NCBI GenBank assembly: GCA_944351765.1
Contig: CALVPR010000003.1
Location: 1 to 57,366, forward strand
Direction: 5' to 3'
Length of the DNA: 57,366 nucleotides
Source of the DNA: an uncultured Bacilli bacterium
GTDB taxonomy: Bacteria > Bacillota_I > Bacilli_A > RF39 > UBA660
Position 1 is the first letter of the stretch; every line of letters begins with the position of its first letter. The notes under the pieces are model-generated. The model saw nothing but the letters and a program-made list of their open reading frames with translations, was not told the origin of the DNA and did not search any database. Of this stretch, positions 1 through 15,606 are shown in pieces. The translations under genes and the position numbers were made by a program.

Positions 1-76
1 ATTTGTCAATATTGTTTAAAGTATCAAAATTATTTATTAAATTTATTACCTTTTTTGTATTATTATCTAACAACAT
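1..76 (-). CDS. N-terminus of an unknown protein running off the window (MLLDNNTKKVINLINNFDTLNNIDK...)
   Basis: ATG at 76 on the minus strand, preceded by AAAGGAAAAGAGGT (RBS-like); frame stays open to position 1; not in the ORF track. Confidence 0.55.
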   Translation of the reverse strand, partial: MLLDNNTKKVINLINNFDTLNNIDK

Positions 77-150
77 ATTTTACCTCTTTTCCTTTAATTA
101 TAAGGGTTATAAGTAACTTCGCTTAATTATTACCTGTGTCTATACTGTAT

Positions 151-579
151 TCATACTACTCTTTGTCTCATACCTCCAGATAAATTTTTAGGGTATTTAT
201 AAATAAAATCTTTAAGTCCATATAACTCTAATAATTTTATAACTCTTTCTTTTTTTTCTTTTGTTAAATTTTTTTCTATTTTTAATCCTATTAAACAATT
301 ATCTAAAATATTTAACCAAGGAAAAAGACAATCTTGTTGAAGCATATAACCTAATTTCTTTTTGCTTTGATTAGGATATATTATTTCACCACTACTTTTA
401 TCAATTAAACCAGACAAAATAGATAAAAGAGTAGATTTACCACATCCAGAAGGCCCTACTATGGCAATAAATTCTCCTTCATTAATATCTAAACTTATAT
501 TATCAATCGCAGTTATTTCACCACTTTTAGTAAAGTATTTCTTCTTTATATCTTTAATAGATAAAATTGTATTATTCAT
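151..579 (-). pseudogene. ytlC: 5' half of a nitrate/sulfonate-type ABC ATPase (YtlC-like), truncated after the signature motif
   Basis: Walker A GPSGCGKS and Q-loop present; ends LSGGMRQRVV*; no Walker B, D-loop or H-loop in any downstream minus-strand frame. Confidence 0.8.
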
Positions 580-1579
580 AATCTTTAAAATACTCTGAAT
601 ATATTAAATCATTAAATGAAACTTTATTTTCAAGTTCACCAGCCGCAATTATAATATCTTGTATATGATTCCATTCGTTTTCATTAATAGTTATATTAGA
701 CTTCCATGCTTCTCCTTCTTTGTATCTTTCAATCATTTTTGTAATATCTTCAATATCAGTATCTGGGAAAAAGTCTATTATTGATTTAGCAATTTCCTCA
801 GAACTTTTTTCTTCAACAAATTTAAGACCTTTGTTAATTGCGTTAGAGAATCCTTTTATTATATTAGGGTTTTCTTCAATAAAACTTTTTTTAGCATTAT
901 ATGCTGTATATGGAACTACTCCTCCTAAATCACCAATATAAGCAACTACGTGACCATATCCTGCTTGTTCTACTGCAAGTGCATTAGGTTCAAATAGAGT
1001 AACAAAGTCTCCGGTTCCTCCAATAAAAGCTCCTTGCATTGCTGCAAAATCAATTGATGTATCTATTGTTAAATCAGTATTTGGATCTATACCATTTTCA
1101 CGAAGAGCCCATTCAAATGTCATTTCTGGCATACCGCCTTTTCTACCACCAATTACATATTTACCTTTTAAATCTTCTAAAGTAAAATTTTCATATTCTT
1201 CTCTAGCTACTAAAAAAGAACCATCTTTTTGTGTTAAACCTGCAAATGTTTGTAAATAATCTTTTTCTCCACCATTATATACATATATTGTAGCTTCTGT
1301 ACCACAAAAACCAATTTGAACGTCTCCTGATAACACTGCTGCAGTAACGGCATCAGCACCTGATGCTAAAATAAGTTCAATTTCAATACCTTCTTCTTCA
1401 AAAAATCCTTCACTAATTGCAACATATTGTGGTGCATAAAAAATACTATGTGTTACTTCTGCTAATGTTATTTTAGTTAATCCATTATCGTTTTTATCTT
1501 CTTTTCTAAAAATAAATATTCCAAAAACTATAATACCTAAGATTATTAAACTAATAATAATTTTTTTCATATATTCCAT
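572..1579 (-). CDS. ytlA: NMT1/SsuA-family ABC substrate-binding protein, YtlA-like
   Basis: N-terminal TM anchor; AEVTHSIFYAPQYVA, LTQKDGSFLV and RKGGMP motifs match Bacillus YtlA as recalled. Confidence 0.8.
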   Translation of the reverse strand: MEYMKKIIISLIILGIIVFGIFIFRKEDKNDNGLTKITLAEVTHSIFYAPQYVAISEGFFEEEGIEIELILASGADAVTAAVLSGDVQIGFCGTEATIYVYNGGEKDYLQTFAGLTQKDGSFLVAREEYENFTLEDLKGKYVIGGRKGGMPEMTFEWALRENGIDPNTDLTIDTSIDFAAMQGAFIGGTGDFVTLFEPNALAVEQAGYGHVVAYIGDLGGVVPYTAYNAKKSFIEENPNIIKGFSNAINKGLKFVEEKSSEEIAKSIIDFFPDTDIEDITKMIERYKEGEAWKSNITINENEWNHIQDIIIAAGELENKVSFNDLIYSEYFKDYE

Positions 1580-1593
1580 CCTTTCATACAGTG

Positions 1594-1621
1594 TATTATA
1601 TTCTTTTATAGTTATTTTGTT
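1594..1621 (-). promoter_or_regulatory. possible sigK-type promoter of ytlA (AACA-N15-AATATAATA)
   Basis: Resembles AC-N16-CATAnnnTA with one mismatch; could also be a sigA TATAAT -10. Confidence 0.35.
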
Positions 1622-1711
1622 AAAAGTAACTTACATTCAATTAATATCATATATATATAAATATTGTAAAATAAATTAATCAAATGTATAATTGATGTGA
1701 GAAGGTGACTT

Positions 1712-2404
1712 ATGAATATTTTAGTTATAGATGATGAAAAAGAAATTGCAGATTTAATAGAAATATATTTAAAAAATGAAAATTATAATGTTTATAAATA
1801 TTATTCTAGTGAAAATATAATGAATGATTTAGAAAACATAAAAATAGATTTAGCAATATTAGATATTATGATGCTTGGTGTTGATGGATTTTCATTATGT
1901 GAAGAAATAAGAAAAAAATATAATTTTCCAATAATATTTGTAACTGCTAAAGTAGAGAATATTGATAAAATAAATGGGTTTGCAATTGGAGCAGATGATT
2001 ATGTTACTAAACCATTTGAACCATTAGAATTAGTGGCAAGAGTAAAAGCGCAAATTAGAAGATATAAAAATTATAATAAGGTAGAAGAAAATGAAGAAGT
2101 AATTGATTTTCGAAATATTGTAATAAATAATAATAGTCATGAATTTTACTTTAAAGATAAAAAGATATTACTTACTCCAATTGAGTTTTCTATTATGTGG
2201 TATTTATGTAAAAATAGGGGAACTACAGTGAAAACTGAAGATTTATTTATGGAAGTATGGAAAGAAAAATATTACGAAAAAGATAACAATACAATTATGG
2301 TACATATTAGACATTTAAGAGAAAAAATGAATGATATAGGAAGAGAACCTAAATATATAAAAACAATATGGGGAGTGGGGTATAAAATTGAAAACGAAAA
2401 TTAA
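1712..2404 (+). CDS. OmpR-family response regulator, VanR-like
   Basis: Receiver DD / LDIMM / KPF motifs; winged helix NNTIMVHIRHLREKMND...KYIKTIWGVGY typical of VanR. Confidence 0.9.
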   Translation: MNILVIDDEKEIADLIEIYLKNENYNVYKYYSSENIMNDLENIKIDLAILDIMMLGVDGFSLCEEIRKKYNFPIIFVTAKVENIDKINGFAIGADDYVTKPFEPLELVARVKAQIRRYKNYNKVEENEEVIDFRNIVINNNSHEFYFKDKKILLTPIEFSIMWYLCKNRGTTVKTEDLFMEVWKEKYYEKDNNTIMVHIRHLREKMNDIGREPKYIKTIWGVGYKIENEN

Positions 2405-3482
2405 ATATGGAAAAAAATTAACTAATAAATTTATAAAAAGAATATTTTTATGGACTTCTATCTATACTTTTATTTTTATAATATTATGGCTTTTATGTAG
2501 AAGCATATGTTCTAATGTTATTTGGTATGAAGGTGATTTCTTTTATCATATATTAAGAAATATCGGATATAGTTTTACAACATTATTAATAATATGGTTA
2601 ATAGGGTTTTTAATAATAGTTATAATATGTTTGTATAAAACATTATCATATGTTGATTCAATAGTAGATGCTAGTGCACTTTTAATAAGTGATAAAGAAG
2701 AAGATATAGTACTTCCAGAAGATTTATTAGATGTTGAAAAAAGAATGAATCAAATAAAAAAACAGGCAAGAAAAAATTTGAAATTAGCTCAAGAAAATGA
2801 ACAAAAGAAAAATGATTTAATTGTATATTTAGCTCACGATATAAAGACACCTTTAACTTCTATGATTGGATACTTATCTTTACTTAATGAGGTTGACGAT
2901 ATGCCTTTAAAGCAAAGGGAAAAATACATAAATATTGCTTTAGAAAAGTCATATCGTTTAGAAGATTTAATTAATGAATTATTTGATATATCAAGATTTA
3001 ATGCTGAAACGATTATTTTATCTAAAGAAGAATTAAATTTAACTATGATGTTAGAACAAATAGTCGATGATTTTTATCCTATATTAAAGGAAAATAATAA
3101 AGAAATAATTATTAAAAGTGATGATAAGATAATTATATATGCAGATTCTGATAAGATTGCTAGAGTATTTGGTAATATTATAAAAAACGCTATTAATTAT
3201 AGTATTAATAATGACAAAATAGAAATAGAAGTAAAAAAAGATAATGAAAATGTTATAGTTAAAGTAAAAAATAAAGGTACTAAAATACCGGAAGAAAAAT
3301 TAAAAAGAATTTTTGAAAAATTTTATAGAGCTGATTCTTCAAGAACAAGTAAGACTGGTGGTAGTGGATTAGGACTTGCTATTGCAAAAGAAATAGTAGA
3401 ATTACATAAAGGAAAAATAATTGCAACAAGCAATGACTTTGAAACAGTATTTGAAGTAGTTTTACCTTTATATAAAAATTAA
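2388..3482 (+). CDS. sensor histidine kinase, VanS-like
   Basis: Two TMs; KNDLIVYLAHDIKTPLTS H-box; N, F and G boxes; TTG start overlapping the regulator. Confidence 0.9.
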   Translation: MKTKIKYGKKLTNKFIKRIFLWTSIYTFIFIILWLLCRSICSNVIWYEGDFFYHILRNIGYSFTTLLIIWLIGFLIIVIICLYKTLSYVDSIVDASALLISDKEEDIVLPEDLLDVEKRMNQIKKQARKNLKLAQENEQKKNDLIVYLAHDIKTPLTSMIGYLSLLNEVDDMPLKQREKYINIALEKSYRLEDLINELFDISRFNAETIILSKEELNLTMMLEQIVDDFYPILKENNKEIIIKSDDKIIIYADSDKIARVFGNIIKNAINYSINNDKIEIEVKKDNENVIVKVKNKGTKIPEEKLKRIFEKFYRADSSRTSKTGGSGLGLAIAKEIVELHKGKIIATSNDFETVFEVVLPLYKN

Positions 3483-14027: not shown

Positions 14028-14377
14028 TTAAAGAAATAGATAAAATAGAAGAAAATCCATTTTCTAGATATTTAGAATATTATATAGATGATAAAAAAAT
14101 AGGCCATTTAAGATATGCACTTATATATGACAGGATGGAAATAGAAGATTTATTTGTGGAAGAAGAATACAGAAATCAAAAAATTGGTTCTAAATTAATG
14201 AGTTATTTAGTTAGTATTGCAATAGATTATCATGTTGTAAATATTACTTTAGAAGTTAGAAGAAGCAATGAGATTGCGAGAAAATTATATAAAAATTTTG
14301 GTTTTAGAGAAGTTGCTTTGAGGAAATTTTATTATGGAGATGAAGATGGAATATTGATGGAAAAGCAGGTGATGTAA
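14024..14377 (+). CDS. rimI: RimI-like GNAT acetyltransferase
   Basis: TLEVRRSN...LYKNFGF...RKFYY...EDG; lies in the tsa operon. Confidence 0.85.
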   Translation: MIKEIDKIEENPFSRYLEYYIDDKKIGHLRYALIYDRMEIEDLFVEEEYRNQKIGSKLMSYLVSIAIDYHVVNITLEVRRSNEIARKLYKNFGFREVALRKFYYGDEDGILMEKQVM

Positions 14378-15387
14378 TGAAAGATGTAGTATGTTTAGCA
14401 ATAGAGACTAGTTGTGATGAAACAAGTATGAGTATTATAAAAAACGGAAGTGAAGAAATAGCAACAGTTGTATTTACTCAAATTGATATTCACAAAAAAT
14501 TTGGCGGAGTAGTTCCTGAAATAGCAAGTAGGAGTCATATTGAAAGTATTACCATTGTGCTTGATGAATTATTTGAAAAATCTAAAATGACTATAGATGA
14601 TATTGATATAATTGGTGTTACTTATGGTCCAGGTCTTATAGGATCATTATTAATAGGGTTACAAGCTGCTAAAACAATAGCTATGATTACTGGTAAACCA
14701 TTAATACCGGTTCACCATATTGCTGGTCATATATATGCAAATAATTTAGAAAATAGACTACAGTTTCCACTAATAGCATTAGTAGTAAGTGGTGGTCATA
14801 CAGAACTCATATATATGAAAGAAGACTATTCATTTGAAAGAATTGGCGGAACTCTAGATGATGCGGTAGGAGAAGCATATGATAAAGTAGCTAAGATATT
14901 AGGACTTGATTACCCAGGTGGACCTGTAGTAGATGCTTTATCAATAAAAGGAAAAGATACCTATGATTTACCTTATCCACTTGATGATAAGTCATATAAC
15001 TTTAGTTTTAGTGGTATTAAAAGTGCTGTAGTAAATATTGTTCATAATGAAAAGCAAAGAAAAAAAGAAATTAGAGTAGAAGATATGTGTACTTCTTTTC
15101 AAAACAGAGTAGTAGAAGTTATTACTAAAAAGACAATGAGAGCACTTAAAGAATATAAAGTTAAAAACTTAATAATTGCTGGTGGAGTAGCTGCTAATAA
15201 TGGACTTAGAAATAAGTTTGCTACTTTATGTAAAGAAGAAAAAATAAATCTATCTATTCCTAAGATAAAATATTGTACTGATAATGCTGCCATGATTGGA
15301 GCAGCAGCATATTATGCATATAAAAAAGGAATAGTAGCAGATTTAGAATTAAATGCAGTGGCAACAGATACATTATATAAATATTAA
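14377..15387 (+). CDS. tsaD: t6A threonylcarbamoyltransferase
   Basis: IETSCDET, GGVVPEIASRSH, HIAGH, VSGGHT and CTDNAAMI. Confidence 0.97.
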   Translation: MKDVVCLAIETSCDETSMSIIKNGSEEIATVVFTQIDIHKKFGGVVPEIASRSHIESITIVLDELFEKSKMTIDDIDIIGVTYGPGLIGSLLIGLQAAKTIAMITGKPLIPVHHIAGHIYANNLENRLQFPLIALVVSGGHTELIYMKEDYSFERIGGTLDDAVGEAYDKVAKILGLDYPGGPVVDALSIKGKDTYDLPYPLDDKSYNFSFSGIKSAVVNIVHNEKQRKKEIRVEDMCTSFQNRVVEVITKKTMRALKEYKVKNLIIAGGVAANNGLRNKFATLCKEEKINLSIPKIKYCTDNAAMIGAAAYYAYKKGIVADLELNAVATDTLYKY

Positions 15388-15444
15388 TATATAATGTTTT
15401 TTTGTATAAATTCAATAATTTTTGAAAAAAATAATAAAAAAGGG

Positions 15445-15473
15445 TTGCACTAAAGAGTAAAATGTTGTATACT
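15445..15473 (+). promoter_or_regulatory. sigA promoter of the tRNA gene
   Basis: TTGCAC-17-TATACT with an A-rich UP tract. Confidence 0.75.
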
Positions 15474-15498
15474 ATAGTAGTCTTAACAAAAAAGAGAT

Positions 15499-15574
15499 GC
15501 CTAATTAGCTCAGTCGGTAGAGCACTCGGCTGTTAACCGATAGGTCGTAGGTTCGAGTCCTACATTAGGCGCCA
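15499..15574 (+). tRNA. tRNA-Asn(GTT)
   Basis: Acceptor stem GCCTAAT/ATTAGGC, D-arm GCTC/GAGC, anticodon loop CTGTTAA, GTTCGAG T-loop, encoded CCA. Confidence 0.97.
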
Positions 15575-15584
15575 TTAAGATATT

Positions 15585-15606
15585 AACTCCTTTATAGGAG
15601 TTTTTT
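15585..15606 (+). terminator. intrinsic terminator after the tRNA
   Basis: AACTCCT-TTAT-AGGAGTT plus T run. Confidence 0.8.

Follow-up and report, generated by a model that had tools for sequence, protein, structure and literature searches.

Intervening elements in spore-formers have been reported from sigK, spsM, spoVFB, spoVR, gerE and yabG. Skin elements span 2.6-48 kb and carry their recombinase gene at one edge, in most cases just ahead of the C-terminal fragment (bioRxiv 10.1101/2022.02.25.481979). The gin element in gerE of B. cereus ATCC 10987 is a small non-prophage element whose serine recombinase GirC needs the small GirX for excision (PMC5595907). SPbeta, located in spsM, and yin, located in yabG, combine transmissibility with an excision that restores a sporulation gene (PMC4191935, PMC10747680). 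We analyzed a stretch of 57,366 nucleotides (nt) from an uncultured Bacilli bacterium, referred to as the window, which represents the first 57,366 bases of contig C3 of the host genome G000 (64 contigs, 1.29 Mb, 24% G+C, completeness 92.7%, contamination 0.23%), with position 1 at the contig end. Window 1-155 is, with near certainty, the attL end of an element with a site-specific serine recombinase, and this element splits a gene for a ytlC-like ABC-importer ATPase between codons 141 and 142. We further propose, with a probability of roughly 0.6, that this element is excised in the mother cell and that excision rebuilds the ytlC-like gene.

The ytlC elements resemble skin of B. subtilis, C. 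difficile and others in having a large serine recombinase (LSR) at the edge beside the C-terminal fragment and a short core between inverted half-sites. Like skin they are very variable in size, spanning 2.8 kb to ~34 kb. The directionality factor of skin is a small protein of its own (CD1234 in C. difficile; PMC5025042), and the candidate for this role in the ytlC family is an open reading frame (ORF) of 41 amino acids (aa) which, unlike its skin counterpart, lies directly upstream of the recombinase gene. Further differences are that the target is a transporter ATPase and not a sigma factor, that the recombinase carries a DUF4368 domain, and that excision of the ytlC element is something we infer. 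Minimal ytlC elements, made up of the recombinase gene and ~1 kb, are similar in style to gin, but they have another target than gin and some members carry a MobV relaxase or resistance cargo. No relationship of the recombinase and the 41-aa ORF to GirC and GirX was detected, although no direct comparison was made. SPbeta and yin are prophages and set a precedent for elements that are mobile and developmental at once, whereas the ytlC elements that we examined showed no genes for phage structural proteins. The C-terminal DUF4368 and the association with mobilizable elements are shared with the TndX/TnpX-like recombinases of clostridial transposons (PMC10083194). Their clade is described as mostly multi-targeting, and DUF4368 is reported for 63% of its members and for 0.73% of site-specific LSRs (PMC10083194). 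Unlike that clade, the ytlC family is found at a single codon of a single gene in 66 or more of 80 loci; it is a strictly site-specific DUF4368 family and thus contradicts the generalisation of DUF4368 recombinases as multi-targeting.

A serine-recombinase element splits the ytlC-like gene

A preliminary description of the window held that the ATPase is intact up to LSGGMRQRV, where homology ends abruptly, that no frame supplies a Walker B motif, that a new ORF led by a ribosome binding site (RBS) starts at position 76 and that the upstream ytlA-like gene is undamaged. Closer analysis bore out each of these observations as well as the conclusion drawn from them, that this is one junction of an integrated element. 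The ATPase ORF (Table 1) encodes 142 aa that match positions 2-117 of 137 of the Pfam family ABC_tran (PF00005; 91.9 bits) and are 96.6% identical to residues 1-145 of the intact orthologue of the same-genus genome G005. The fragment retains Walker A, Q-loop and LSGG signature but lacks Walker B, D-loop and H-loop; the protein ends in LSGGMRQRVV, followed by a stop codon that the insert supplies. A tblastn search with the last 110 residues of the G005 orthologue did not find the C-terminal half in any frame of window 1-150. The ATPase gene overlaps the end of the complete gene for a substrate-binding lipoprotein of 335 aa. On its other side, ~74 nt past the ATPase stop, a start codon with an RBS-like purine-rich stretch ahead opens the leftmost gene of the element. 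Its product matched no Pfam family and has homologues in a 138-aa ORF of the same-genus genome G001 and a 132-aa ORF of locus L059.

The preliminary description had also suggested a search for the 3' half of ytlC and a ytlD-like permease gene elsewhere in the genome beside a large serine recombinase, and both were found at C42:1534-2650. The ATPase 3' half (ALIRT...LLDEAF..., C42:1534-1863) is 100% identical to the C-terminal half of the G005 protein, based on the 110-residue query, which had this single match in the G000 bin; there is no second full ATPase copy in the bin. It is directly followed by an intact gene for a ytlD-like permease of 263 aa (C42:1859-2650). In G005 the intact ATPase orthologue (251 aa, 99% identical) likewise precedes a permease of 263 aa. 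The operon order of NMT1-type binding protein, ATPase and permease is thus that of YtlACD. DUF4368 is the C-terminal domain of one LSR class. Ahead of the 3' half, C42 encodes a recombinase tail, a 311-aa RhuM/Fic protein and an 82-aa ORF; the tail (C42:3-119) comprises the last 40 codons of an ORF, matches DUF4368 with 30.1 bits (cut-off 25) and ends 1.4 kb upstream of the ATPase 3' half.

Comparison with the intact genes of G005 and G002 located the junctions. C3 is collinear with these genes through CAAAGAGTAG and diverges afterwards, and C42 is collinear from those ten bases on, so that identity to the intact genes passes from C3 to C42 inside CAAAGAGTAG, a 10-nt core common to attL on C3 and attR on C42. 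As both stretches of collinearity meet at the same ten bases, the element is flanked by a 10-nt direct repeat. Recombination within the core would restore the reading frame, and the fragment ends match the G005 protein residue for residue. On the element side there are inverted half-sites, GTGTCT-N8-ATTCA before attR and TGAAT-N8-AGACAC after attL, the layout expected for the attP of a serine integrase. The crossover dinucleotide is probably GT at 159-158, the first two bases of codon Val141, which places it within the sequence coding for the ABC motif QRVA. Conserved half-sites occur at 59 attR and 16 attL junctions of the 80 LSR loci introduced below. At one of these loci (L015, G015:C11) a second complete att-like palindrome lies 13 bases past the attL half-site, which suggests tandem elements.

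Could the gene be intact in the organism, with C3 misjoined or interrupted by a repeat? Only 150 nt separate the break from a contig end in a metagenome-assembled genome (MAG) of 64 contigs, and the element interior is absent from the bin. A k-mer comparison revealed no overlap of the left ends of C3 and C42 with any other contig end in the bin, other contig ends of the bin overlap by ~77 nt, and the sequence at these two ends has no other copy in the bin except for a paralogous RhuM/Fic gene. Yet in six genus representatives and in 12 of the 80 LSR loci a single contig contains a complete element with one half of the gene on either side, both halves are present on a closed chromosome of 1.52 Mb, and the junction is conserved in more than 60 independent assemblies. 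Because the halves share contigs in relatives and share this chromosome, misassembly, which the preliminary description had named as a way in which its reading might fail, is excluded, and we give an assembly or binning artefact a negligible chance. It is just as improbable that we are looking at a decaying pseudogene or an ancient stable split gene without any mobile element. Truncation, together with absence of the gene from 20 of 81 family genomes, would fit such a history, but not the perfect identity of the 3' half to an intact orthologue, nor two close relatives that keep an intact gene for a 99% identical protein, nor an insert with recombinase and att sites. An intein was rejected, as a stop codon ends the frame and the insert has its own genes; a group I or II intron was rejected too, as Rfam gave no match and a recombinase and att sites are part of the insert.

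Target specificity and fragment integrity in relatives

Three recombinases of such elements were aligned and one genome per prokaryotic species was scanned, yielding 233 relatives of which the best 80 (58-100% identity) were kept. According to their record titles these 80 LSR loci derive from uncultured Bacilli, Tenericutes or Bacillota MAGs, including Candidatus Onthousia, Faecisoma and Scybalousia, and many carry isolate or contig labels suggesting human or animal gut. Full-length relatives of the LSR consist of Resolvase, Recombinase, Zn-ribbon and DUF4368 domains. In 61 of the 80 loci the ytlC 3' part lies on the same strand at most 4 kb downstream of the recombinase gene; it begins at residue 139/141 in 57 of these and at residues 124-132 in four longer alignments. 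Five loci have an inverted layout, in which the ytlC 5' half follows the recombinase gene directly on the opposite strand. Neither part was found in the remaining 14 loci, 10 of which hold less than 1.6 kb of downstream sequence; in another locus among the 14, L065, the 3' part is located upstream in the inverted layout. Altogether, ytlC is broken at the same codon beside the same LSR family in 66 of the 80 loci. In L047, L048, L050, L051, L057 and L065 the recombinase gene is located at the other element end and read from the strand that does not code for ytlC, and the att half-sites look alike.

Elements from loci that hold both halves measure 2.8-5.5 kb, corresponding to the recombinase gene and ~1-4 kb, and minimal elements are devoid of a relaxase. 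In G003 the halves are 9.8 kb apart on one contig, separated by AbiE-like genes, an aldo-keto reductase, a MerR regulator, two heavy-metal P-type ATPases, an ArsR regulator and a 511-aa recombinase adjoining the 3' half. In G014 they lie 3.9 kb apart on one contig, and the insert encodes two membrane proteins, a TetR regulator and a 503-aa recombinase, again adjoining the 3' half. On the closed chromosome a distance of 33.8 kb, which includes two recombinase genes, separates the two equally oriented halves. Cargo in some family members comprises metal-efflux ATPases, AbiE-like genes and Fic/RhuM genes.

The target gene was followed in a family sample of 81 genomes with about one genome per genus. 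An orthologue of the ytlC-like gene is present in 61 of these and absent from 20. The gene is intact in 43 genomes, cut at the site described here in 12, cut at a second site (residues 196-201) in five and cut near residue 181 in one, so that 18 of the 61 sampled gene-carrying genera have a broken ytlC. Differences exist even within the genus: G002 and G005 have intact genes, G004 and G006 are cut at the first site and G001 is cut at both. The preliminary description had anticipated truncation of relatives at the same codon, as seen here in 12 of 61 genus representatives and 66 of 80 LSR loci, and had named random breakpoints and decay as evidence to the contrary; the breaks are at a fixed codon and the fragments are free of decay. 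Of the 61 3' parts, 55 are open over at least 100 aa, with Walker B and H-loop kept in 54 of the 55. The others are one shorter natural intact form, three that end at a second recombinase insertion site and two that run off the contig, and there was no frameshift or random stop in any of the 61.

The ATPase gene is not the only target in this operon. Breaks in the operon occur at few recurrent positions, with a recombinase gene alongside wherever flanks were examined, and four recombinase types hit the ytlACD-like operon at four fixed positions. The second ATPase site is used by a recombinase type of 501-507 aa. The permease is cut at residues 205-210 in 10 loci, and each cut is directly followed by a homologue (54-100% identical) of a 422-aa recombinase; 57 loci have a permease match, of which 38 are full, seven run off and 12 are cut. 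The gene for the binding protein is cut at one position, before MPEMTFEW, in G003, where a 531-aa recombinase lies beside it, and in G005. The cut gene of G005 (L010, G005:C9, 1916-3386) is located beside a 269-aa ORF which is of no known family and not a recombinase, and the ATPase gene is intact in this genome. The operon of G003 has received three insertions.

Proposed excision in the mother cell and the alternative of an ordinary mobile island

How might the split gene be used? G000 carries spo0A (264 bits, cut-off 200), an unsplit sigK (300.7 bits, cut-off 298.65), a sigE-like gene, spoIVA, cotE and spoVD, and the host is probably an endospore former when judged at the gene level. The preliminary description had given ytlA-ytlC-ytlD as a mother-cell operon under sigma-K in B. 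subtilis, and the link to sigma-K is borne out by a table of core sporulation genes of B. subtilis, in which the three genes appear under sigma-K (PMC3416734). A SpoIVA match was obtained in 70 of the 81 family genomes. The operon is present in 59 of these 70 and in 2 of the 11 SpoIVA-negative genomes (odds ratio 24, Fisher p 2.6e-5), an association that is overstated because the genomes are related. Judging by the B. subtilis listing and the co-occurrence with spoIVA, the interrupted gene may belong to the mother-cell programme, but a sigma-A-like promoter, discussed below, speaks against this.

The ytlC family also offers a candidate for the factor that would direct excision. A conserved ORF of ~41 aa lies 3-115 nt upstream of the recombinase gene, with a slight overlap in one locus, in 71 of the 80 loci, a count by regular expression that missed at least two divergent copies. 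Its consensus is M-x-Y-N-V-I-D-I ... L-K-x-I-I-N-K-K-L-Y-K-I-I and no Pfam family matched. Structure prediction of the 41-aa protein together with the recombinase, using our own alignments of 24 and 26 rows, gave interaction prediction scores from aligned errors (ipSAE) of 0.72, 0.73 and 0.72, and the best control reached 0.00. By a calibration that is only rough, the mark of 0.72 is reached by 116 of 157 solved complexes and by 2 of 215 mismatched pairs. The predicted local distance difference test (pLDDT) value of the partner was at least 74, and the runs agreed in at least 83% of contacts. Predicted contacts map to recombinase residues 377-406, covering the end of the zinc ribbon and the region that follows, and to residues 491-536 in DUF4368. 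The model supports binding of the 41-aa protein to the recombinase and makes the protein a candidate recombination directionality factor (RDF). Small ORFs of 39-60 aa are located directly upstream of other G000 recombinase genes, too. Several conserved groups can be distinguished among the regions preceding the 41-aa ORF, and an obvious mother-cell promoter is lacking there. In one element subgroup a conserved micro-ORF of 18 codons (M-[KR]-K-N-...-I-D-Y-K-x-L-F-I-S-Q-T) with its own GGAGG precedes the 41-aa ORF by ~60-130 nt and may be a leader peptide or regulatory ORF.

From this we infer the following sequence of events. The recombinase would insert the element into the one ytlC site, and the element would remain integrated in vegetative cells and in the forespore genome, as with skin, SPbeta and gin. 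In the mother cell, the product of the small ORF would act as an RDF and switch the recombinase to attL x attR excision. This would rebuild an in-frame ytlC, and an importer of the YtlACD type could be made, provided that the operon is expressed in the mother cell of this organism. The element would still be inherited because the mother-cell genome is discarded.

Several findings weigh against this proposal. The candidate promoter of the operon is sigma-A-like (Table 1), and its -10-like motif AATATAATA recurs upstream of the binding-protein gene in seven of nine diverse loci. Regular expressions for sigma-K (AC-N15-18-CATA-N3-TA) and sigma-E promoters matched nothing upstream of the operon in eight of nine loci; the ninth (L019) gave one sigma-K/sigma-E match that is likely due to chance. 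An Rfam search of window 1-2500 for a riboswitch ahead of the operon had no match at E <= 1. The ytlC-like label is taken from domains and operon order, and the best NCBIfam matches are generic and all under cut-offs. YtlACD has not been assigned a function, not even in B. subtilis (PMC11466899). Finally, the G000 bin holds only the last 40 residues of the LSR. The body of the LSR and the small ORF of the ytlC element are missing from it, and we therefore deduced the content of the G000 element from relatives. The recombinase, relaxase and exporter of the G001 element have no orthologues in the bin either, the best recombinase match being 34% identical.

Evidence for mobility counts in the same direction. 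Recombinase and host-gene distances are hardly correlated (Mantel r 0.136, matched by 156 of 2000 permutations), and the mean recombinase distance of 0.28 is below the mean host-gene distance of 0.41. Hence we dropped long vertical inheritance as proof of function, since co-divergence of recombinase and host is unsupported. The element family is, to judge from these distances, horizontally mobile, and intact fragments could therefore reflect recent insertions. Moreover, the same-genus G001 element has a Mob_Pre (MobV) relaxase match of 49.9 bits; the relaxase and the cargo of some members imply that the family also spreads horizontally.

An excision product, be it the restored attB or the circular attP, was not observed in assembled contigs. 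The G003 element stretch is contained, wholly or partly, in 20 public run rows from 11 studies, 18 of them with at least half its words, which stem from chicken gut where labelled and consist of assembled contigs. Among the joints listed for the contigs of four runs on L022:1-16000 there was no joint from ~3586 to ~13327 and no back-joint, a result that is uninformative either way as contigs drop rare variants. With sides of no more than 20-25 nt, the listed joints resemble noise from low-complexity sequence. attL is bridged by contigs of run X6 and attR by contigs of runs X1 and X6, and contigs break near attL (3545/3599) in X1 and X8.

Taken together, these points could be read as describing an ordinary integrative and partly mobilizable island that has its attB by chance in a transporter gene which the host can spare; ytlC would be inactivated, and excision would serve transfer only, with no link to sporulation. 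LSR elements commonly integrate within conserved genes (PMC10083194), which suits this explanation as do the mobility, the relaxase and cargo, the promoter and the lack of an excision product. We nevertheless consider it less likely than excision in the mother cell. Decay is absent from 61 of 61 3' parts although the gene is interrupted in 18 of 61 genera, and four recombinase types make use of four fixed positions in this one operon without scattered frameshifts or stops. The operon is co-distributed with spoIVA, and the same kind of element cuts spoIVA, spoVD and cotE, genes that are hardly dispensable to a transmissible spore-former. By analogy with SPbeta (PMC4191935), developmental excision and a mobilizable island need not be mutually exclusive.

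Further split genes and possible programmed elimination

Besides the tail on C42, G000 carries ten Recombinase-domain genes in 1.29 Mb, five of which adjoin the 3' part of a broken gene (Table 1). The spoVD 3' part lies upstream of mraY and a spoVE/ftsW-like gene, and the 5' part was not found in the G000 bin. The insert in the gene for the Ca2+ P-type ATPase is possibly a prophage-sized element. Splitting of spoIVA is not confined to G000: seven family genomes with both parts listed have the gene split at profile positions ~118-124, two more have one part only, and a second split site at ~400-407 is used in two other genomes.

Table 1. Coordinates of the split ytlC-like gene, its surroundings and further split genes and recombinases
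Feature	Location	Strand	Basis or remarks
Left end of intervening element	window 1-155		~155 nt visible, remainder past contig end
Leftmost element gene, first 25 codons	window 1-76	(-)	ATG at 76-74, frame runs off position 1
attL	window 136-170	(-)	core CAAAGAGTAG at 165-156; half-site TGAAT-N8-AGACAC at 152-136
5' fragment of ytlC-like ABC-importer ATPase gene, 142 aa	window 151-579	(-)	ORF list, sequence, PF00005
ytlA-like substrate-binding lipoprotein gene, NMT1/THI5-type, complete, 335 aa, first of operon	window 572-1579	(-)	ORF list, Pfam
Candidate operon promoter, sigma-A-like, TTAACA-17-nt spacer-TATAAT	window 1595-1623	(-)	consensus match only
Further recombinase types at operon sites	L022 (G003:C4) 719-2314 and 14328-15596; L026 2033-3556; L027 2611-4116		three sites
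Micro-ORF of one element subgroup	L049, L053, L058, L078, L121:1659-1766 and similar loci		conservation
spoIVA, split	C8:6354-6719 (profile 1-123); C31:6406-7518 (profile 121-492)	(-); (-)	528-aa DUF4368 recombinase C31:7584-9170(-) adjoins 3' part
cotE, split, 7.1 kb on one contig	C10:16869-16991 (profile 2-42); C10:24111-24446 (profile 39-153)	(+); (+)	recombinase C10:22421-24082(+)
spoVD 3' part, last ~225 residues	C11:35072-35740 (profile 410-636)	(-)	directly behind 551-aa recombinase C11:35715-37370(-)
S11 D-Ala-D-Ala carboxypeptidase gene (DacB/DacF-like), split at profile ~100-109	C38:325-612; C10:1523-1939	(-); (+)	recombinase C10:1-1608(+) adjoins 3' part
Ca2+ P-type ATPase gene, split at profile position 324, ~35 kb on one contig	C2:13740-15455; C2:50552-51415	(-); (-)	recombinase C2:15487-17064(-)

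Full-text searches yielded no paper on interruptions of ytlC, ytlA/ytlD, spoIVA, spoVD or cotE; their scope was openly accessible text, and subscription-only papers and supplements (bioRxiv Tables S2, S7) could list more. Within this scope, ytlC together with spoIVA, spoVD, cotE and ytlA/ytlD extends the list of genes interrupted in spore-formers. Interruption can be dense, with at least six split genes in 1.29 Mb and up to three insertions per operon, and is widespread in an uncultured gut lineage. Annotation pipelines would call such split genes pseudogenes, and sporulation capacity would therefore be underestimated. The ytlC elements moreover form a natural series with one recombinase family, defined attB and attP sites and the 41-aa ORF as candidate directionality factor.

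We tentatively suggest, with less confidence than we have in excision of the ytlC element itself, that programmed DNA elimination in the mother cell might be routine in these small-genome gut Bacilli. Many sporulation genes (spoIVA, spoVD, cotE, ytlACD at four positions and others) would be kept in pieces, each pair with its own recombinase and a directionality factor of ~40 aa, and all elements would be excised in one cell per spore. If true, bacteria would have a parallel to the internal eliminated sequences known from ciliates, and the ytlC family would represent a ready set of orthogonal, naturally paired LSR/RDF/att modules.

Two of the other elements in G000 show additional features. The cotE element carries an ORF of 464 aa that resembles an aminoacyl-tRNA synthetase by eye. 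Downstream of the spoIVA 5' fragment there is a 53%-identical homologue of the leftmost ORF of the ytlC element (C8:3337-3720, (-)) as well as a weak Mob-like match (C8:4382-4834, (-)), and different intervening elements therefore have modules in common.

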